Of a stretch of 44,850 nt of DNA, positions 5,519 to 35,096 are shown piece after piece (position 1 is the stretch's first letter; every line of letters begins with the position of its first letter). The DNA comes from a virus. The position numbers and the translations under genes were made by a program. The notes beneath the pieces were generated by a model, which was not told where the DNA came from, searched no databases, and worked only from the letters and a program-made list of their open reading frames with translations. Location: the IMG/VR virus record IMGVR_UViG_3300042756_000237; one strand, written 5' to 3'.

Positions 5519-5597
5519 CCTTATTTAGAATGAATATTGATAAGCATAATTTTGAAAAATAATCTTGATTTTTCATTGTCGAATCAAAATAAGTTTG

Positions 5598-5617
5598 TAT
5601 CTTTGTTGAAACAAAAA
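5598..5617 (+). promoter_or_regulatory. Early promoter: TATCTTTG box plus TTGAAACAAAAA extension
   Basis: TAnnTTTG followed by TTGAAACA. The ATG is 23 nt downstream. Confidence 0.6.
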
Positions 5618-9554: not shown

Positions 9555-10502
9555 ATGAAAATTTACAACACAGAAGATTTGAGCGATGGGATTGTTCAAA
9601 TGAAGTACAACAAGGATAAAAACAGAGCTGCAGTTGTTTTTAGAGATATTAACCCTATTATGAATTTCTTTGGAATGTGGGATTTTTACCGATATGAAGA
9701 TAAAAGTTTCATACACTCCAAATCAGCCGATCCAAACATCCCAACCGCCACAGAATCCGAAATCCTGACAGTAGCGGAATATCGGGAAGCTTTTAAGAAC
9801 GCTATTATTGGGAGGTCGTTTTGGATTAAAACAAGAGAACAAGCAAAATGGCTTCTTGAAATGGTTGAGAAGTGGACGGAGTTTGTTTTATTTGGAGAAA
9901 AATTTAGAAAGCCAACCGAAACAAGTCTGTTAAATCTTCCATTCACACTTACTTTTGATGATTTTAACAGTTCTTTTCATTTTAGAAAAACAGGCGAAAA
10001 ATCCAAACTATCCACCCTCACACCATTCGGCTACGAAAAGCCACAACACCCATTTGAGGAAGCACTAAAAAAGCGACCCATTGAATGTAAGGACGAAATT
10101 GAGTTTAATGAGTTGATGAAGCTTATTGAGGAGAAAACGGGGATTGTTTGGGGCAACGGAATTAAGCCGACTAAGAGAAAATTTGATATTAATTATCCTT
10201 TTATTATTGTTGGCACTCAAAATATGCACAGTAGATCGGATATTCAAATAAAACCTACCAAAGCATCCAAACTACTCAAAAAGTACGGTAAGTCAAAGGC
10301 AGAACCACGTTATCCATTGCCTGTTTTTCCTCCTGTAAATGAAATCCGTCTATCCAACAGCGTCCAATCTATTTTTGTACCAAGCACGGTACAACTGCCT
10401 CACATCATCCAAGGTACAACGGAATCGTTTGTGATCACGGTGAGCAAAAATTTGGCCGATGAAATAAACCTAATAAAAATCGAAAAAGTTACGGTTGTTT
10501 AA
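9555..10502 (+). CDS. Hypothetical protein
   Basis: 315-aa ORF with no recognisable motif. Confidence 0.7.
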   Translation: MKIYNTEDLSDGIVQMKYNKDKNRAAVVFRDINPIMNFFGMWDFYRYEDKSFIHSKSADPNIPTATESEILTVAEYREAFKNAIIGRSFWIKTREQAKWLLEMVEKWTEFVLFGEKFRKPTETSLLNLPFTLTFDDFNSSFHFRKTGEKSKLSTLTPFGYEKPQHPFEEALKKRPIECKDEIEFNELMKLIEEKTGIVWGNGIKPTKRKFDINYPFIIVGTQNMHSRSDIQIKPTKASKLLKKYGKSKAEPRYPLPVFPPVNEIRLSNSVQSIFVPSTVQLPHIIQGTTESFVITVSKNLADEINLIKIEKVTVV

Positions 10503-10512
10503 ATAAATTCCG

Positions 10513-10520
10513 TATATTTG
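10513..10520 (+). promoter_or_regulatory. -7 box TATATTTG driving a noncoding unit
   Basis: Matches TAnnTTTG. The next ORF start is 117 nt away, beyond a terminator. Confidence 0.5.
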
Positions 10521-10615
10521 TTAGGTAATCCGATGCGAGCGGATAAGGGCATTTGACTGTTTTATCAGTCAGACCTAAGCCCCTAAGTATTCTCGCAAGT
10601 GCTTAGGGGTTTTTT
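10521..10615 (+). ncRNA. Candidate phage sRNA (about 90 nt) with its own promoter and terminator
   Basis: Closing helix ttaggt (10521-26) with acctaa (10573-78). Hairpins atccg/cggat (10528-44) and tgactg/cagtca (10554-71). Terminator cccctaag/cttagggg plus T6. Confidence 0.5.
10580..10615 (+). terminator. Intrinsic terminator
   Basis: 8-bp GC-rich stem pairing cccctaag (10580-87) with cttagggg (10602-09), followed by tttttt. Confidence 0.8.
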
Positions 10616-10636
10616 ATTAATCAAAAATTTATTATT

Positions 10637-10897
10637 ATGTCAGATGAAATCTTAGAAGTAGAAATAGAATTGGGAGACGGTTCTAAACAAAAATTATCAA
10701 TCAAAGAAATTGATGTAAGTGAATGGGAAGAAATAGAAAAAGGAAAGCGAGGGATTCTTACGCTTGTAAACGGTCAGCAAATGTTGATAGAAATTAATGA
10801 AGCCAATTATGAGGGCATTTCTTTTAAAACAATTGGAGGTAGTCAACTTTATTTCCATGAGGATATTGTAATACGCTCTTTATTTGTGGAGCAATAA
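10637..10897 (+). CDS. Hypothetical acidic protein
   Basis: 86-aa ORF rich in Glu and Asp. Confidence 0.6.
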   Translation: MSDEILEVEIELGDGSKQKLSIKEIDVSEWEEIEKGKRGILTLVNGQQMLIEINEANYEGISFKTIGGSQLYFHEDIVIRSLFVEQ

Positions 10898-10948
10898 TTT
10901 AACCAAACCAAGGGGCGCGACTTGGTAACGCGCAGTAAAATTTAAGTT

Positions 10949-12115
10949 ATGGAAAAGAATGAAGTAGTAAAAATTACACCTGAATTACAGGAAGTAGTAA
11001 AAACAAGTGGATTGCCCGATTTAACGAAAGCCGAAAAAATAGCCTCAAATTACGCACCATTTTTTAATCAGGTTTCGGAGCAATCAGCCATTTTTAAACA
11101 GCTAAAAAAGGGTGTAAAAGAAGACGTTGAGAAAGCAAAAAGGGTGGTGATCGATCTTGGTCACATTGTATCAGACACCGAAGCGCAAAAGAAATTAGAT
11201 AAAGAAGTTTTGCTTATTGAAACCCGTTTTATTGACGCGCTAAATAATACCGTAGTAAATGCTGCCCGACTAACACAGGCAGAGGCAAAAGAGATAGTGA
11301 AGCACGAAGAAAATCTTGAAAAAGAGCGCATTCAACAGCTTCAAATTGACCGTGTAAATATGCTTACTCCATACTATGAAGAAGCGCACATGATGAATTT
11401 ATCAGGCATGGAAGAAGAAGTTTTTCAGGCTTATTTTGATAAGAAAAAACAAGATTTTGAATTTATTGAAGAGGCTAAAAAAGCTGCTGAAAAAAAACGT
11501 ATTGAGGACGAAAAGCAAGCCGATATTGAACGTATTGCCAAAGAAAAAGCGATTGCCTTACACAATGAACGTAAAGAAAAAATACTGCCGTTTTGGAATT
11601 TCATTCCTGCCGATAAAAGAGCTATGGACTTCTCAACGCTTACAGAAGAAGAATGGAATGAGCGTTTTGATTATTCGGTAAAAGAAAAAGAAAAATACGA
11701 TGCTGAACAAAAAAAGATAGCTGATGAAAACGAACGCCTTAAAAAAGAAGCAGAAGAACGGGAAGCAAAAGCCGAGGCAGAACGTAAAGAACAAGCTGAA
11801 ATTGACCGTAAAAAACAAGAAGAAACAAACCGATTAATTGCGGAAGAAAAAGCTAAATCGGAAGCATTGGAGGCTGAATTAAAAGCCAAAAAGGACGAAG
11901 AAGAACGCCTGAAAAAAGAACAACAGGATAAATTGGAAGCCGAAGAAAGGCAGCGTAAACAAGCTGAAAAAGCACCCGTAAAGGATAAAATGAAACTTTG
12001 GGTTGATTCATTTGCTTTGCCTGAAATCTCCGTACAAAATGAAATCACCACCGAGATAAAAGCCCGTCACGATGGATTTGTAAAGTGGGCTAAAGAACAG
12101 ATTGAAAAACTTTAA
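10949..12115 (+). CDS. Coiled-coil protein with a long Lys/Glu-rich segment
   Basis: 388-aa ORF with a low-complexity EAEEREAKAEAERKEQAEIDRKKQEE... region. Confidence 0.7.
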   Translation: MEKNEVVKITPELQEVVKTSGLPDLTKAEKIASNYAPFFNQVSEQSAIFKQLKKGVKEDVEKAKRVVIDLGHIVSDTEAQKKLDKEVLLIETRFIDALNNTVVNAARLTQAEAKEIVKHEENLEKERIQQLQIDRVNMLTPYYEEAHMMNLSGMEEEVFQAYFDKKKQDFEFIEEAKKAAEKKRIEDEKQADIERIAKEKAIALHNERKEKILPFWNFIPADKRAMDFSTLTEEEWNERFDYSVKEKEKYDAEQKKIADENERLKKEAEEREAKAEAERKEQAEIDRKKQEETNRLIAEEKAKSEALEAELKAKKDEEERLKKEQQDKLEAEERQRKQAEKAPVKDKMKLWVDSFALPEISVQNEITTEIKARHDGFVKWAKEQIEKL

Positions 12116-12119
12116 GACA

Positions 12120-12614
12120 ATGGCACATTGGAAAAAAAATAATGATTCTGCCTACATAAGTGGTGAGGATTTACAAACATCATTTAACGGACTAAAACCG
12201 GAAATGGTCGTTAAAATAACCAAGGTAAACGATGCTAAAACGTTTGACCAAAACAAGCAAGCCGAACAGGTTGTATCAGCTATTTACCTACAAGAAATAG
12301 GAGGTAAAGACCTTTATAAACCTGTTATTCTCAATAAAACAAACGGTAAGTTTCTATGCAAGGAATTTGCCGATACCGAAATGGATAATTGGCTAAATAA
12401 GCCCGTTGTTTTGTACGCTCAAAAAGATTCAAGACACGGCTACGTAGTGCGGTTCAAGACATTCAAAAAAATACATTTGGTTGCAGGTGATGAAAATTTC
12501 AACAAATGCAAAACGGCTATTCAAAAATCAGGATTCACAATTGACCAAATCAGAGAAAAATACGAAGTATCAACCGAAATAGAAAAACTTTTGACAGATG
12601 GAAAGGATATTTAA
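12120..12614 (+). CDS. Hypothetical protein
   Basis: First ATG of the TTG-initiated ORF 12102..12614. Confidence 0.6.
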   Translation: MAHWKKNNDSAYISGEDLQTSFNGLKPEMVVKITKVNDAKTFDQNKQAEQVVSAIYLQEIGGKDLYKPVILNKTNGKFLCKEFADTEMDNWLNKPVVLYAQKDSRHGYVVRFKTFKKIHLVAGDENFNKCKTAIQKSGFTIDQIREKYEVSTEIEKLLTDGKDI

Positions 12615-13338
12615 AATTCACGCAAGCCAAACCCATAAAATTATGGGTAAGATGGGACTTACTGAAACGCAACAAAACAGGCTTAACGAATTGAAATTAC
12701 GCAATTCAGACCCATTAGCTAAGGCTTTAACTCAAAACATGAAAGACGAACTTTCGGGTTTGATTTTGAAAGCTGAAATGCCTGAATTACCACAGACCGC
12801 CAAAACTTTTTTACATGAGTGGTACGCAAACGACAATGAACAGGTTTGGTCAAAATATACCGACAAAGGCAACATGGTTGAGTTTGATTTAATTGAATTT
12901 ATGGCTGAAAAAATCGGCTACGGATTGGCTCAAAAAAATCAACATGAGCGTTCGGATGAATATTTTATCGGTTCGTGCGATGTGGAATTTCCTGATTTAA
13001 TTGTTGATGTAAAAGCCCCTTGGAACGTGAAAACACTTCATGAGCAGGTTATTTCGGGATTAGACGAAGCATACGAAATGCAGTTAAAAGTATATTGCCA
13101 CCTTTGGAATAAACCAAAAGGACTATTGTTTTTCGGCTTAATGGATACGCCTGAAGAAGCAAATTATGGAAATGAGATAATGTATTCAAGCATTCCTGAT
13201 AGTGAAAAATGGGTTGCCTATAATACGGTAGCGGATCCTGAATTTATAAAATCAGCAATCGAACGGGTTAAATTATGCCGAATCTACCTTGCTGAATATG
13301 ATAAGAAAATTAAATCCCGAATCGGTAAAATTCATTAA
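12598..13338 (+). CDS. Putative PD-(D/E)XK family nuclease
   Basis: The block GSCDVEFPDLIVDVKAP fits D...(D/E)xK. Size and genomic position resemble phage recombination exonucleases. Confidence 0.5.
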   Translation: MERIFKIHASQTHKIMGKMGLTETQQNRLNELKLRNSDPLAKALTQNMKDELSGLILKAEMPELPQTAKTFLHEWYANDNEQVWSKYTDKGNMVEFDLIEFMAEKIGYGLAQKNQHERSDEYFIGSCDVEFPDLIVDVKAPWNVKTLHEQVISGLDEAYEMQLKVYCHLWNKPKGLLFFGLMDTPEEANYGNEIMYSSIPDSEKWVAYNTVADPEFIKSAIERVKLCRIYLAEYDKKIKSRIGKIH

Positions 13339-16286: not shown

Positions 16287-16294
16287 TATATTTG
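16287..16294 (+). promoter_or_regulatory. -7 box TATATTTG inside the 14-nt block TTAGTATATTTGTA
   Basis: The same 14-mer recurs at 19854-19867. Confidence 0.55.
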
Positions 16295-16400
16295 TAGGCC
16301 GTCCATTACCGGCATGAAAAAGCTTAGGTTAGATTTATTTAACCCGAATGCCTCAATTTGAAAGTAATGGTTCAGATTGGGGCATTTTAAATTTTATAGA

Positions 16401-18590
16401 ATGGAATATCAAGAATTTTTACAAACAAAAGAAAAATCATTTATCGAAAGTGGTTTTGAAATTAAAGAATCCCAATTAAACACATTACTCAAAGACTTTC
16501 AAAAATATGCCGTGAAAACTGCATTGTCAAAAGGTCGATTTGCCTTGTTTTTTGATTGCGGATTAGGAAAAACATTTTGTCAATTGGAATGGGCAAACCA
16601 AGTAAGTAAAAAAACAGGGCAAAAGGTAATTATACTTGCTCCGCTTGCTGTTGTTGAACAAACTAAAAGAGAAAATGTTAAATTCAATATCGGCATAGAT
16701 TTCTTTGATATTGATAACTTTGAGCAACTTAAAAACATTGACACATCTATTTATTCAGGCGTTGTATTAGATGAGAGTAGCATTTTAAAAGGTCGGGATG
16801 GTAAGCTATCAAACTACATAATCGAAGCTTTTAAATCAACCCCGTATAAACTTTGTTGCACGGCTACACCAAGCCCAAACGACCACATGGAATTAGGGCA
16901 ACATTCTGAATTTTTGGGCGCAATGTCTTATTTGGAAATGCTTGCAATGTATTTCGTTCACGATGGAGGCGAAACAAGTAAATGGAGGTTGAGAAAACAC
17001 GCGCAAGATCCATTTTGGAAATACGTATCGAGTTGGTCAATGGCAATCGATAATCCGGCAACACTCGGATTCGATGGCGATGGTTATTTTTTACCTGAAA
17101 TCGAATACATTGAACATATTATTCCGGTTCAAAATGATAGTGGAAATTTGTTTGGTGATGTATCAGTAAGCGCAACCGATTTACACAAAGATTTAAGTAA
17201 GTCATTTAATTTACGTATTCAAAAAACAGTTGAGTTAGTAAATTCAAACGAAAATCAATGGATTGTTTGGGGATTAAAAAATGACGAAACAGATGCGATT
17301 TGTAAATTATTGCCCGATTCTAAAAACGTTCAGGGTTCGGATAAACCGGAAATAAAAGCCAAAAATTTAAACGATTTCGGAGATTCTGAATTTAAAACAT
17401 TGATTACAAAGACCTCAATTGCATCATTCGGGATGAACTACCAACAATGCAATCAAATGGTTTTTATGTCTTATGATTTTAAGTTTGAGGCATTTTATCA
17501 AGCTGTAAGACGTTGTTACAGGTTTGGGCAAAAGAACAAAGTAACCGTACATATTTTGGTGCCGGAAAGTCAAATAAATGTACGTGCCACAATTTTAGAA
17601 AAGGAAAAACAGCATTTTGAAAGAATATCCGAAATGTCGAAATATTCCACAGAAACTAATTACAAAAAATCTAAATCAAAATTTACCGTGAAAAGCAAAG
17701 AAGTAAAAACAGAAGATTACCATTTATTAAACGGTGATTGCGTGCAGGAATCAAAAAAAATAGCTGACAATTCAGCCGGATTGTGTGTTTTTAGCCCTCC
17801 ATTCGCTGAACTTTATGTATATTCAGATAAAGCGGAAGATATGGGAAACGTAGCCAACTACAAGCAATTTGAGCAGCATTTTAAATTCTTAATCCCGGAA
17901 ATAAAAAGGATTTTGCAGCCGGGCAGAATTTGCGCTATTCATTGTATGGATTTACCAATTCAAAAAGGAAAAGAGGGCTATATCGGGCTTCGTGATTTTT
18001 CTGGAATGTTGATTGATTGGTTTCAAGAACAAGGATTTGTTTACCATTCGCGCACAACAATTTGGAAAAATCCGGTTACTGAAATGCAACGGACAAAAGC
18101 ACTCGGATTGCTTCATAAAACCATAAAAAAAGACAGTTCAATGTCGCGCGTTGGGATTCCTGATTATGTTCTATTTTTCCGAAATGAGGGCGAAAATTTA
18201 ACACCTATTGAGCACCAAGACAAAGACCATAATAAACCCAATTATTTGCCTGTTGATTTGTGGCAAAAGTACGCTTCTCCCGTATGGTTGGATATTGATT
18301 ATGGCAGAACTTTGCAATATCGTTCCGGGCGTGGTGGGAATGATGAAAAGCACATTTGCCCGTTACAACTCGATACGATTGAAAGGGTAATTCATCTTTA
18401 TTCAAATGAGGGTGAAACCGTTTTTAGTCCGTTTGGAGGTATTGGAAGCGAGGGTTTTCAGGCTATAAAAATGAACAGAAAATCAATTTCAATTGAACTC
18501 AAAGAATCGTATTTTACGATAAATGAGAAAAATCACTGCGATATTGTCAATGAGAAATCGGCAACTTTAACACTTCAATTTCCCGATTAA
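16401..18590 (+). CDS. SNF2-like helicase fused to a beta-class N4/N6 DNA methyltransferase
   Basis: N-terminal half: FFDCGLGKT, VLDESSILK, CCTATPSPND and helicase-C QAVRRCYRFGQ. C-terminal half: motif IV FSPPF comes before motif I FSPFGGIGSEG. The ATG at 16401 lies inside the TTG-initiated ORF 16377. Confidence 0.8.
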   Translation: MEYQEFLQTKEKSFIESGFEIKESQLNTLLKDFQKYAVKTALSKGRFALFFDCGLGKTFCQLEWANQVSKKTGQKVIILAPLAVVEQTKRENVKFNIGIDFFDIDNFEQLKNIDTSIYSGVVLDESSILKGRDGKLSNYIIEAFKSTPYKLCCTATPSPNDHMELGQHSEFLGAMSYLEMLAMYFVHDGGETSKWRLRKHAQDPFWKYVSSWSMAIDNPATLGFDGDGYFLPEIEYIEHIIPVQNDSGNLFGDVSVSATDLHKDLSKSFNLRIQKTVELVNSNENQWIVWGLKNDETDAICKLLPDSKNVQGSDKPEIKAKNLNDFGDSEFKTLITKTSIASFGMNYQQCNQMVFMSYDFKFEAFYQAVRRCYRFGQKNKVTVHILVPESQINVRATILEKEKQHFERISEMSKYSTETNYKKSKSKFTVKSKEVKTEDYHLLNGDCVQESKKIADNSAGLCVFSPPFAELYVYSDKAEDMGNVANYKQFEQHFKFLIPEIKRILQPGRICAIHCMDLPIQKGKEGYIGLRDFSGMLIDWFQEQGFVYHSRTTIWKNPVTEMQRTKALGLLHKTIKKDSSMSRVGIPDYVLFFRNEGENLTPIEHQDKDHNKPNYLPVDLWQKYASPVWLDIDYGRTLQYRSGRGGNDEKHICPLQLDTIERVIHLYSNEGETVFSPFGGIGSEGFQAIKMNRKSISIELKESYFTINEKNHCDIVNEKSATLTLQFPD

Positions 18591-19856: not shown

Positions 19857-19864
19857 TATATTTG
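19857..19864 (+). promoter_or_regulatory. -7 box TATATTTG inside the second copy of TTAGTATATTTGTA
   Basis: Exact 14-nt repeat of 16283-16296. Confidence 0.55.
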
Positions 19865-20018
19865 TAAACGGGTTAGCACCCAAAACAAACATCATGCAAA
19901 AAGAAAATCACATATTATTAATATTACCCAGCGAGGTAGAAAATTTGAATGAGGCTTGTTTGTGCCTGTGCTAACATTTGAATTTTTTATTTTCGTTGGG
20001 TATTTTTTATTTTAGCTT

Positions 20019-20810
20019 ATGCCGGAAATTTATTTTAAAGCATTCATTCGAGTTGTTAAATCAATTGCAGCTAAGGATGATCATCACACAGGACTTGATA
20101 CGGTTGAGGTTATTAGAGAGCCTTTAATTGTCGCTGAATCAAAAGATATGGTTAAGCAAATTTTACTTGAAAAATACCCTCAATTCTTTCAAAATGGAAA
20201 GGTTTATGAAAAGGAAACCAAAAACGATAAAGCGCAATTTTTTTACGTTGTGATATTTCCGTTGTATCAATACGAATTAGACGAAATAAATGAGGGCGAA
20301 TGGAAATGCGATTATTGCGGTCATGTACACCAAAACAAATATATTTCAAGACCCTTAAAAAGCCAAAAGTTTGAAGGAAAAATATTTTGTGGCAATGATT
20401 ACAAAACCGGAAATGACATAGTTACATTACCTGATTGTTACGAAAATTTTAAACGCAGTTACTTTAAAAATGTAGATTTTCCTGATGATTTGAATTACAT
20501 AAATGCAGATAGTCCGGTTTATATTTACAAGATTACCGAAAAATCAACAGCTAAATGTTATGTGGGTAAAACTAAAAACGCACCGTTCTTTCGTTGGTGG
20601 AACCATTTAAAACACAGTAAAACACCGTTTGGCTTATACATTAGAGCGACAAAGTTAAGCGGTTGGAGTTTTGAGGTTTTGGAAGAGCTACCAAGTAATA
20701 TTTCAGACACCGAAGTATTTTCGATTGAATCAAAGTACATACGTGAATTTAATTCGATTGAAAACGGATATAATTCAGTAATAAGCAATAAAAATGAGCG
20801 GTTGGATTAA
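20019..20810 (+). CDS. GIY-YIG nuclease-domain protein with an N-terminal extension containing CxxC
   Basis: The C-terminal domain VYIYKI..KCYVGKT..R..H...E.KYIREF..ENGYN matches GIY-YIG. Confidence 0.7.
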   Translation: MPEIYFKAFIRVVKSIAAKDDHHTGLDTVEVIREPLIVAESKDMVKQILLEKYPQFFQNGKVYEKETKNDKAQFFYVVIFPLYQYELDEINEGEWKCDYCGHVHQNKYISRPLKSQKFEGKIFCGNDYKTGNDIVTLPDCYENFKRSYFKNVDFPDDLNYINADSPVYIYKITEKSTAKCYVGKTKNAPFFRWWNHLKHSKTPFGLYIRATKLSGWSFEVLEELPSNISDTEVFSIESKYIREFNSIENGYNSVISNKNERLD

Positions 20811-24410: not shown

Positions 24411-24414
24411 TTCG

Positions 24415-24422
24415 TATCTTTG
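24415..24422 (+). promoter_or_regulatory. -7 box TATCTTTG heading the noncoding tRNA-like unit
   Basis: Matches TAnnTTTG. There is no ORF before the terminator at 24764. Confidence 0.5.
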
Positions 24423-24555
24423 AATCTGTTAAACTTTTAGGTAATTCCCGTACGTCATTGGTTTGGTTTACGGGAACAAAGCTAGCCTCCCAGTGATTGA
24501 CCCCTAAGTACACAGGGTAAGAGGTCGTAAGTCAACCGCGTAAGAGTTGACAAAT

Positions 24556-24628
24556 GCGTGGATAGCTCAGTTGGTAGAGCGTTGGTTTGAAAAGCCAAAG
24601 AGAGGGTTCGATTCCCTAACTCGCACAC
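24556..24628 (+). tRNA. tRNA-Phe(GAA)-like element with a defective acceptor and T stem (possibly a pseudo-tRNA)
   Basis: Canonical TA-GCTC-AGTTGGTA-GAGC D arm. Anticodon arm ttggt-TTGAAAA-gccaa. T loop GGG-TTCGATT-CCC. Only about 4 of 7 acceptor pairs form and the variable region is short. Confidence 0.55.
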
Positions 24629-24637
24629 CCATAAATA

Positions 24638-24747
24638 GAATGGTTTGATTTGAGTTTTAGCAGGGCATCCAATCGGTTCACGCGAAATAAAACCGATAAT
24701 TATATGGTGGGTTTCGCGCAGGGTTCAAGTTAGTAACAAAACCATTC
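24638..24747 (+). ncRNA. Structured trailer RNA with predicted H-type pseudoknot
   Basis: 9-bp closing helix gaatggttt (24638-46) with aaaccattc (24739-47). Stem atcggtt (24672-78) with aaccgat (24691-97). Its loop cgcgaaa (24681-87) pairs with tttcgcg (24712-18). Confidence 0.4.
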
Positions 24748-24763
24748 GCTTGTAAGTAGAAGA

Positions 24764-24799
24764 AAACCCCGTTCAGAAATGTTCGGGGTTTGTTGTTTA
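24764..24799 (+). terminator. Intrinsic terminator
   Basis: aaaccccg (24764-71) pairs with cggggttt (24784-91), followed by gttgttt. Confidence 0.75.
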
Positions 24800-24847
24800 G
24801 AATCATTATATATTACATCAATCAGCACCACAATTGAAATTTATTGC

Positions 24848-24855
24848 TATATTTG
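24848..24855 (+). promoter_or_regulatory. -7 box TATATTTG for the moron gene
   Basis: Matches TAnnTTTG, 63 nt upstream of the ATG at 24919. Confidence 0.5.
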
Positions 24856-24918
24856 ATGTTCAAATTATTTTTAACTAAAAATCATTTATTATGAAAAAAA
24901 ATTAGTAGATTTATCGCC

Positions 24919-25281: not shown

Positions 25282-25301
25282 TGAATCTTTCCATATTATT
25301 T

Positions 25302-25335
25302 AAAGCGCATCAGTCATCCGGTGCGCTTTTTTTTG
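25302..25335 (+). terminator. Intrinsic terminator
   Basis: aaagcgca (25302-09) pairs with tgcgcttt (25322-29), and the T run extends to 25334. Confidence 0.8.
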
Positions 25336-25382
25336 TTATATTTGTACTTCAATATTAATTTTTATTATATTTGTACTTCAAT
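25336..25382 (+). repeat. Tandem duplication of the 18-nt promoter block TTATATTTGTACTTCAAT (period 29 bp)
   Basis: Copies at 25336-25353 and 25365-25382, each containing TATATTTG. Confidence 0.85.
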
Positions 25383-25468
25383 TCCTCCAACGGAGTTGTT
25401 TTCATAAAGTTGAATTAATGAGGTTAGGTAAGGAATGCGCTGATTTATGTTGGCGCATTTGTTTTTTG
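25381..25468 (+). ncRNA. Candidate sRNA (about 85 nt) between the duplicated promoter and a terminator
   Basis: Closing helix attcct (25381-86) with aggaat (25431-36). Contains TTAGGTAA at 25424. Terminator aatgcgc (25434-40) with gcgcatt (25453-59), followed by tgttttttg. Confidence 0.4.
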
Positions 25469-25470
25469 TT

Positions 25471-25478
25471 TATATTTG
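25471..25478 (+). promoter_or_regulatory. Late-operon -7 box TATATTTG, 4 nt upstream of the ATG at 25483
   Basis: Same block as at 933-947. Confidence 0.5.
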
Positions 25479-25482
25479 CTTT

Positions 25483-25656
25483 ATGAATGACAAGGAATTT
25501 GAACTACTCAAAAAGTACATGAATTATATTGATGAAATAGAAAGCGTCACCTATGTTGATACGTTTGACCGTGACGCTGAAAACAGAATGAAAGAAAAAT
25601 TTACAGAGCATGAAAAAATAGTTTTACAGGAAATATCAAAATCACTTCAACAATGA
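25483..25656 (+). CDS. Hypothetical small protein, first gene of the late operon
   Basis: In-frame ATG of ORF 25447..25656 that lies outside the terminator hairpin. Confidence 0.55.
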   Translation: MNDKEFELLKKYMNYIDEIESVTYVDTFDRDAENRMKEKFTEHEKIVLQEISKSLQQ

Positions 25657-35054: not shown

Positions 35055-35096
35055 AAAAGGGGAGGTAAATTATTAATCGCCTCCCCTTTTTTATTT
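35055..35096 (+). terminator. Intrinsic terminator
   Basis: aaaaggggagg (35055-65) pairs with cctcccctttt (35080-90), followed by ttattt. Confidence 0.8.

Follow-up and report, generated by a model that had tools for sequence, protein, structure and literature searches.

In phages P1 and P7 (c4) and P4 (CI), the leader carries a small structured RNA and its complementary target in tandem, and the pairs vary compensatorily between phages. The c4 and CI RNAs are processed, act in trans on ribosome-binding or Rho-dependent termination sites, and serve immunity. In pT181 and pIP501, the kissing of loops decides termination in the leader of the rep gene, and a countertranscript from an opposite-strand promoter is required. 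In guanidine-IV RNAs, the first hairpin and the terminator hairpin form a kissing loop that impedes full formation of the terminator stem, leading to read-through (PMC11611296). For Pseudomonas phages, an ONT-cappable-seq study describes 42 terminators inside 5′ UTRs, with short RNAs plus read-through (PMC10914365).

Here we examine a 134-nt gap (10503–10636), bounded by a stop at 10502 and the next ATG at 10637, in an almost complete phage genome of 44.85 kb (the whole stretch analysed, hereafter the window). We refer to the promoter-to-terminator unit in this gap as unit A, and we read it, from its sequence, as a probable cis-acting 5′-leader attenuator with a kissing loop. As in c4 and CI, both partners of the putative pairing are carried on one leader; unlike in c4 and CI, the partner in unit A is the apex of an intrinsic terminator. 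Unit A also differs from pT181 and pIP501 in having both partners on the same strand and in the same transcript, and no TAnnTTTG promoter box was found on the minus strand within 10503–10636.

Genome setting and promoter type

The window has 37% G+C, and every gene is on the + strand. Its gene content comprises terminase, structural and tail genes, an endolysin, helicase/methylases, and a recombination module. Close relatives of the helicase were found in MAGs named Bacteroidetes bacterium and uncultured Flavobacterium sp., and TAnnTTTG, the -7 box of Bacteroidota sigma-A promoters, is present in the intergenic gaps of the window. In flavobacterial promoters this box lies at -12 to -5 (PMC9723704). 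The exact octamer TATATTTG has 12 + strand copies, seven to nine of them in non-coding DNA, which makes up ~9%–12% of the window.

Several promoter boxes share the extension TTAGTAnnTTTG (2878, 16283, and 19853), and TTAGTA is the top-enriched hexamer of non-coding + strand sequence (seven of 11 copies). We rejected TTAGGT as a motif in its own right: four of its six copies are in non-coding + strand sequence, yet it ranks 10th among hexamers, while promoter extensions such as TTAGTAnnTTTG rank at the top. Two further stretches stood out. A consensus promoter at 2337 is followed by ~575 nt without a convincing ORF (2333–2908), with a second box at 2882 before the next gene, and the structural gene region holds a perfect bidirectional terminator hairpin at 35056–35088 (AAAGGGGAGG…CCTCCCCTTTTTT, about -16.5 kcal/mol on both strands).

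Anatomy of unit A

The features of unit A and of a sister unit in the same genome are listed in Table 1. The sequence-only reading had described the gap as a self-contained small RNA (sRNA) unit with no room for an ORF, and indeed we found no ORF of at least 30 amino acids in 10503–10636. A seven-codon ATG..TGA lies inside the gap (10533–10556), but as a leader peptide it is without evident logic, and we set it aside. The promoter box that had been called at the upstream end was confirmed and fits TAnnTTTG; a TTG is found 15 nt 5′ of it (10495–97), as it is at the 2337 promoter. Because TAnnTTTG occupies -12 to -5 (PMC9723704), transcription is predicted to start at ~10525, and unit A is predicted to yield a promoter-to-terminator RNA of ~90 nt.

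Table 1. Coordinates of unit A, its downstream genes, and the sister unit in the window
Feature	Coordinates	Strand	Description
Promoter -7 box	10513–10520	+	TATATTTG; Bacteroidota sigma-A type; octamer enriched in intergenic gaps
5′ hairpin (hp1)	10528–10544	+	Stem AUCCG/CGGAU, 5 pairs; 7-nt loop AUGCGAG
Segment a	10534–10539	+	UGCGAG, within the hp1 loop
Middle hairpin (hp2)	10552–10573 (core 10554–71)	+	8 pairs, loop UUUUAU
Intrinsic terminator hairpin	10577–10612	+	15 pairs; 6-nt loop CUCGCA (10592–10597), segment a′
U-tract	10610–10615	+	T6
Spacer	10616–10636	+	A/U-rich, 21 nt, up to the start codon; without promoter box
First genes of the block	10637–13338	+	86-aa, 388-aa, and 170-aa proteins, exonuclease (12598–13338)
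Sister unit	16287–16400	+	Box 16287–94; same architecture, before helicase/methylase ATG 16401
Sister 5′ hairpin	16297–16313	+	Loop CCAUUAC (16303–09)
Sister terminator hairpin	16346–87	+	17 pairs; 8-nt loop with GUAAUGG (16364–70), then UUUUAAAUUUU

Both hairpins proposed in that first reading are present, the second extending beyond its core in the RNAfold structure. It takes up most of the 32-nt linker that separates hp1 from the terminator; only some units of the class described below have such a middle hairpin. What had been taken for an 8-bp GC-rich terminator with a T6 tract is there (CCCCTAAG/CTTAGGGG plus T6), but the stem is longer than stated, at 15 pairs. This terminator has a folding energy of -19.5 to -20.1 kcal/mol, varying with the segment folded, and ranks among the top two of the coding strand's terminator-like hairpins in strength. 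The fold of the 96-nt unit A is strong as a whole (-37.2 kcal/mol, z = -4.4), and none of 200 shuffles was equally stable. A supposed closing helix of ttaggt with acctaa exists in the DNA, but the ttaggt arm (10521–26) spans roughly -4 to +2 relative to the predicted start, so it would lie largely outside the transcript of the 10513 promoter, with ~2 nt of the arm in the RNA, and the helix is absent from the minimum-energy fold.

A likely leader of the downstream genes

The idea of a self-contained sRNA unit fared less well than its parts. The ATG follows the T6 tract by 21 nt with no promoter between, which is the layout of a leader instead. No TAnnTTTG box was found in the 10616–10636 spacer, and in the next 5.5 kb of + strand genes there is no intergenic consensus promoter before 16287. 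In two relatives (L056 and L057), a TATATTTG promoter stands ~30 nt before the homologous module without a terminator; the 10513 promoter would therefore be the promoter of this module, with the terminator lying within its 5′ UTR. The order promoter, terminator, gene is seen in the window at 10513 and 16287 only, and five other gaps run from terminator to promoter (5433, ~24766, 25302, 25433, and 30929). A check for trans targets, also suggested in the sequence-only reading, returned no outlier when the start regions of the phage itself were screened crudely for duplexes (best -31.0 versus a shuffle mean of -31.3).

Among the genes downstream from unit A, the 388-aa protein belongs to a large phage family that adjoins ERF recombinases in relatives, and the 86-aa gene has five homologs, found in other contexts where the element is absent. 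The 315-aa protein encoded immediately upstream (9555–10502) is an ORFan: in 5.8 billion proteins it matches only itself, and neither Pfam nor PHROG has a family for it. Two structures near homologous genes were noted in passing. Just before the 388-aa gene, the window has a hairpin GCGCG-acuugguaa-CGCGC (10915–10933) that is not followed by a U-tract and hence is not a terminator; an 84%-identical relative (L001:2966–2984) has AUGCG-acuugguaa-CGCAU, in which the loop is identical and two stem pairs are changed on both sides. Upstream of a homolog of the 86-aa gene (L004:3905–3980), a tRNA-like 3′ piece (…GGGGGTTCAAGTCCCTC…) overlaps the end of the called upstream gene.

Searches for homologs of the gap, which had been put forward as a check, came back empty. 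There was no Rfam family in the region, and the units of the class were likewise unmatched; over the whole window, Rfam gave nothing but a tRNA-Phe elsewhere, the weak matches to NsiR1 and GibS being terminator or AT-rich look-alikes. No homolog of the gap was found by blastn against INPHARED phages or, with exact patterns, in IMG/VR, JGI metagenomes, and GTDB genomes, and a search with the terminator-stem pattern returned 43 contigs, all of them unrelated. The tRNA-Phe (24555–24626) lies in a ~500-nt non-coding stretch (24411–24918) that runs from a TATCTTTG box at 24415 to a terminator at ~24766–95; its flanks fold weakly (z = -1.3 and -2.2) and have no Rfam family. Unit A and this tRNA-Phe leader have TTAGGTAAT and CCCCTAAGTA in common, but we rejected paralogy: the two did not align convincingly, and searching with a gapped pattern matched unrelated coding sequences only. 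A replication origin or other DNA-level site was rejected as well, because iterons are absent and the skew does not change at 10.5 kb.

Predicted loop–loop pairing in unit A and a sister unit

A complementarity between the loop of the first hairpin and the terminator loop (gcgag with ctcgc) had been the most speculative point of the sequence-only reading, and it ended as the best supported, both by the sequence and by recurrence elsewhere. The match is one base longer than first reported: segment a (UGCGAG, 10534–39) and a′ (CUCGCA, 10592–97) are perfect complements over 6 nt, the entire terminator loop. The a:a′ duplex has a calculated energy of -8.1 kcal/mol. It is part of the minimum-energy fold of nascent unit A RNA ending at 10598, which prefers the a:a′ helix plus GGGC:GCCC (-22.4 kcal/mol); with the full terminator, unit A is far more stable (-37 kcal/mol). 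The alternative of a classical antiterminator directed against the 5′ arm of the terminator was rejected, just 4–5 pairs being possible.

Taken alone, the unit A pairing is of modest strength. A back-of-envelope calculation from base composition puts the chance of a 6-nt match among its three loops at ~0.002, a shuffle test is weaker (p = 0.075), and 6 nt is the shortest pairing in a class that spans 6–12 nt. Neither the gap 10503–10636 nor the upstream gene had a homolog in any search, and the pairing in unit A is thus without direct co-variation. Unit A does show the architecture of the class throughout: the box, segment a in a 5′ hairpin loop at the typical spacing, a terminator loop made up entirely of a′, the U-tract, and a start codon 21 nt further along. 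Segment a begins 21 nt past the start of the box (~+10), and the range in the helicase leaders described below is 16–24 nt. The support from unit A itself being modest, its assignment to the class therefore rests on this architecture and on the presence of a sister unit elsewhere in the genome.

The sister unit has a 7-nt perfect loop–loop match in letters quite unlike those of unit A, and its linker is of the same length, 32 nt, again with a hairpin. A possible, weaker third unit is seen at 19857–19990: following a box at 19857, GUUAGCAC (19872–79) is complementary to GUGCUAAC (19967–74), T6 is at 19985–90, and a gene starts at 20019; this unit shares sequence with a 26-codon ORF (19895–19975), and its fold falls short of significance (z = -1.1). 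Elsewhere, the region 25282–25484 has the order terminator (25302–29), promoters (25337 and 25366), hairpin, terminator (25429–63), promoter (25471), with a promoter plus 17 nt (TATATTTGTACTTCAAT) duplicated. Within it, 25366–25466 looks like a free-standing 90-nt RNA, and its loop/terminator complement is partial (5 nt).

Recurrence in related phage loci

The hypothesis of a 5′ loop complementary to the terminator apex was built on units A and C of the window and on units in two unrelated contigs (CGGUCAA versus UUGACCG in L006, GUGACAUUU versus AAAUGUCAC in L058), and was tested on 80 newly fetched loci (1.2 Mb) from phages carrying the 388-aa family. Terminators were called as a hairpin plus a T-run, which gave 646 in the whole pool and 552 distinct ones in the 80 new loci. 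In the new loci, a perfect complement of at least 7 nt between the terminator apex and the upstream 100 nt was found for 17 of the 77 terminators with a promoter box and for 23 of the 475 without one (Fisher's P = 3.5e-6). Scored against shuffles, 18/77 promoter-preceded units reached p ≤ 0.02 (binomial P = 1.4e-14) versus 14/475 of the remainder, which is about the null rate. The 80 new loci contain ~20 units of this architecture, and roughly three-quarters of the promoter-preceded terminators in the sample are without the pairing.

Across the whole pool, window included, complementarity to the transcript's first 40 nt peaks at the center of the terminator loop, where the middle 3-nt bin takes in 19 of 84 units and each other bin about two (Poisson P = 2e-13); direct repeats, subjected to the same analysis in the whole pool, gave no such peak. 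Segment a starts 0–9 nt past the predicted start in most strong instances, the distance from box to a is 12–22 nt (17/23 units), the median spacing from a to a′ is 60 nt in the whole pool, and the predicted RNAs are mostly 77–126 nt long. In 15 of 23 units, the terminator is followed after 8–27 nt by an ORF start, and no promoter intervenes. When the nascent RNA was folded to just past a′, the minimum-energy structure included the a:a′ helix in all 18 strong instances, and segment a is mostly unpaired inside a 5′ hairpin in about 12 of these 18. In some members the complement reaches 11–12 nt, eating into the upper stem. Primase/helicases, primosomal-like proteins, and HNH endonucleases are among the products of the genes downstream.

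By BLAST, units across the class have no alignable sequence in common. Two leaders before primase/helicase genes (L081:3021–3129 and L104:2197–2094, the latter on the minus strand) are alike by eye, and their loop pairs differ as if compensatory (GCAUCAC/GUGAUGC versus CCUUCAC/GUGAAGG). BLAST detects no similarity between these two leaders, and the proteins downstream are DUF3987 versus BT4734-like.

Co-variation in helicase leaders

Helicase genes 75%–83% identical to the window gene at 16401–18590 were collected from 80 IMG/VR contigs, giving 65 distinct upstream regions. In 22 of the 65, the ATG is closely preceded by a strong hairpin with a T-run, and 20 of these 22 keep a complement of at least 6 nt, pairing the hairpin center with a segment that in nearly all lies 16–24 nt past the box. 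The pairs come in at least 13 different sequences, among them ACUGGAACU, GCAUCUCAC, UGCACUAC, GCUUCGAC, GUAAGGCA, GUUGCAG, GGUCUCA, GGUCGAA, UGUGCG, and CCAUUAC. The clearest case, L143, has two hairpins with fully complementary 7-nt loops (CUGGAAC and GUUCCAG). A MAFFT alignment of 20 helicase leaders was not structure-consistent, and co-variation was therefore scored with custom scripts. As so scored, the sequence pattern is that of compensatory evolution of a long-range pairing, with evidence drawn from orthologs of the sister unit and not of unit A.

Proposed mechanism and alternatives

On the evidence of sequence, the gap probably serves as the 5′ leader of the recombination operon that follows and is not an sRNA gene in its own right. 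The analysis shows the architecture, its recurrence, and its co-variation, and these mark the pairing of 5′ segment and terminator apex as a selected feature of the class. Host RNA polymerase would start at ~10525 from the TATATTTG promoter and transcribe the 5′ hairpin first, displaying UGCGAG in its loop, and then the spacer hairpin. The strong intrinsic terminator would be made next, its 6-nt loop CUCGCA being the exact complement of the first loop. Transcripts would either end at the U-tract, the ~90-nt RNA being the terminated product, or read through into the gene 21 nt on, and we infer that a:a′ pairing tunes the frequency of termination. Anything that masks the 5′ loop would then restore termination; candidates are a protein or accumulated terminated leader RNA acting via its a′ loop.

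Most likely, the pairing would favor read-through. We infer this direction because the guanidine-IV kissing loop hinders completion of the terminator stem, and an anti-terminator role is favored because nascent RNA to 10598 prefers a:a′ and complements of 11–12 nt invade the upper stem. Against certainty, the full terminator is far more stable, and a kissing helix of 6–7 pairs atop a stem of 15–20 pairs could leave intact the lower part on which termination depends, in which case the pairing might have no effect on termination or might aid it. It might instead nucleate or stabilize the terminator hairpin, or just compact the product.

Several other readings share parts of this evidence. If the ~90-nt RNA were a trans-acting phage sRNA that pairs with host or phage mRNAs, the kissing loop would serve only compactness and nuclease resistance. 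A predicted start plus an intrinsic terminator are high-confidence criteria for intergenic sRNAs in Bacteroides (PMC7366714), the fold of unit A is strong (z = -4.4), terminator loops reportedly can act as pairing seeds (PMC11979758), and the units at 25366–25466 of the window and in L001 and L059 precede a new promoter and could stand alone. An sRNA is nevertheless unlikely for unit A, with an ATG 21 nt past the U-tract that has no promoter of its own and a class that is glued to downstream ORFs; the loop letters, different in each phage and unit, suit a self-partner rather than a conserved external target, and the crude screen gave no outlier target among the phage's translation start regions. 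Under ordinary operon punctuation, a leaky hairpin would end the upstream 5-kb operon, the promoter would sit upstream by happenstance, and the complementarity in unit A would be chance. The unit A terminator is in fact the first strong one after the promoters at 5547–5598 and so must also stop upstream transcription, and 6 nt in unit A alone is modestly improbable (p ~0.002 to 0.08, by test). Terminators otherwise precede promoters in the same genome, however, and happenstance would have to extend to a sister unit with the same layout, a 32-nt linker, and a 7-nt loop–loop match, as well as to segment a occupying the 5′ hairpin loop, as far from the box as is typical of the class, and to a′ being exactly the terminator loop. 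Together with class statistics and co-variation that indicate selection for such matches, this leaves punctuation as a rather improbable account.

A phage antiterminator, of the kind of lambda N/nut, Q/PR′-tR′, or a NusG paralog/LoaP, would bring in an early protein that binds the 5′ hairpin, overrides the terminator, and times the middle genes. With promoter, hairpins, terminator, and genes placed where an upstream block of small genes of unknown function gives way to recombination/replication genes, the arrangement matches the logic of lambda PR′-tR′, and the two units of the window front successive modules. We think this very unlikely all the same. No such family was found in the upstream proteins scanned, nor in PHROGs and Pfam scans of ~30 window proteins overall, although most of the early proteins have no match at all; the two window leaders share no motif and the hairpin loop differs in each unit, which speaks against one sequence-specific protein; and the need for the terminator loop to complement the 5′ loop would be left unexplained. 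An elaboration of the attenuator that needs no protein is self-antisense control, in which each terminated 90-nt RNA, having both loops, would kiss the 5′ loop or the terminator apex of new leaders and alter their termination. We regard it as improbable, though attractive for replication genes. Were it true, the unit would let the phage time its replication, recombination, and homing-endonuclease genes or sense template copy number for them; no protein, ligand, or opposite-strand promoter would be required, and a private loop address for each unit would explain the unrelated sequences of the two units in one genome.

Our preferred reading, a cis-acting leader attenuator, bears on a subject, gene timing in Bacteroidota (Flavobacterium-type) phages, that is almost unstudied; host sigma-A promoters are apparently used throughout. 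A recurrent leader that pairs its 5′ loop with its terminator loop would be a simple RNA-only control of replication, recombination, and homing-endonuclease genes. Since the design is conserved in architecture and not in sequence, it would escape Rfam and alignment-based RNA discovery. The unit-specific pairs may be mutually orthogonal, and if so they would be candidate programmable attenuators for Bacteroidota genetics.

Comparison with known systems

The layout of unit A recalls the 5′ UTR-derived ncRNA candidates of Pseudomonas phages, which have a terminator at most 250 nt past the promoter, an abundant short RNA, and a minority of read-through (PMC10914365). Host phylum and promoter type are different, those terminators were found experimentally whereas the phage leaders described here are predicted, and long-range loop–loop pairing is not mentioned for them in the accessible text (PMC10914365).

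Unit A is like guanidine-IV (the mepA motif) in that the loop of an upstream hairpin would kiss the loop of the terminator hairpin, a likeness of mechanism only (PMC11611296). The guanidine-IV consensus was not matched when Rfam 15 was scanned with the region (to E = 10) and with the whole window, and neither Rfam 15 nor literature aimed at kissing-loop/terminator leaders yielded such a leader design. Guanidine-IV has conserved loop nucleotides that make a weak, guanidine-dependent contact, whereas the phage leaders have 6–12 perfect Watson–Crick pairs that are unit-specific and come without a ligand pocket. Ligand-free pairing of a terminator apex with a 5′ segment, most often a hairpin loop, in unit-specific letters and recurrent in Bacteroidota phage leaders, is thus apparently undescribed, and it differs also in what it would govern: guanidine-IV controls transporters, and the phage leaders would control replication, recombination, and HNH genes.
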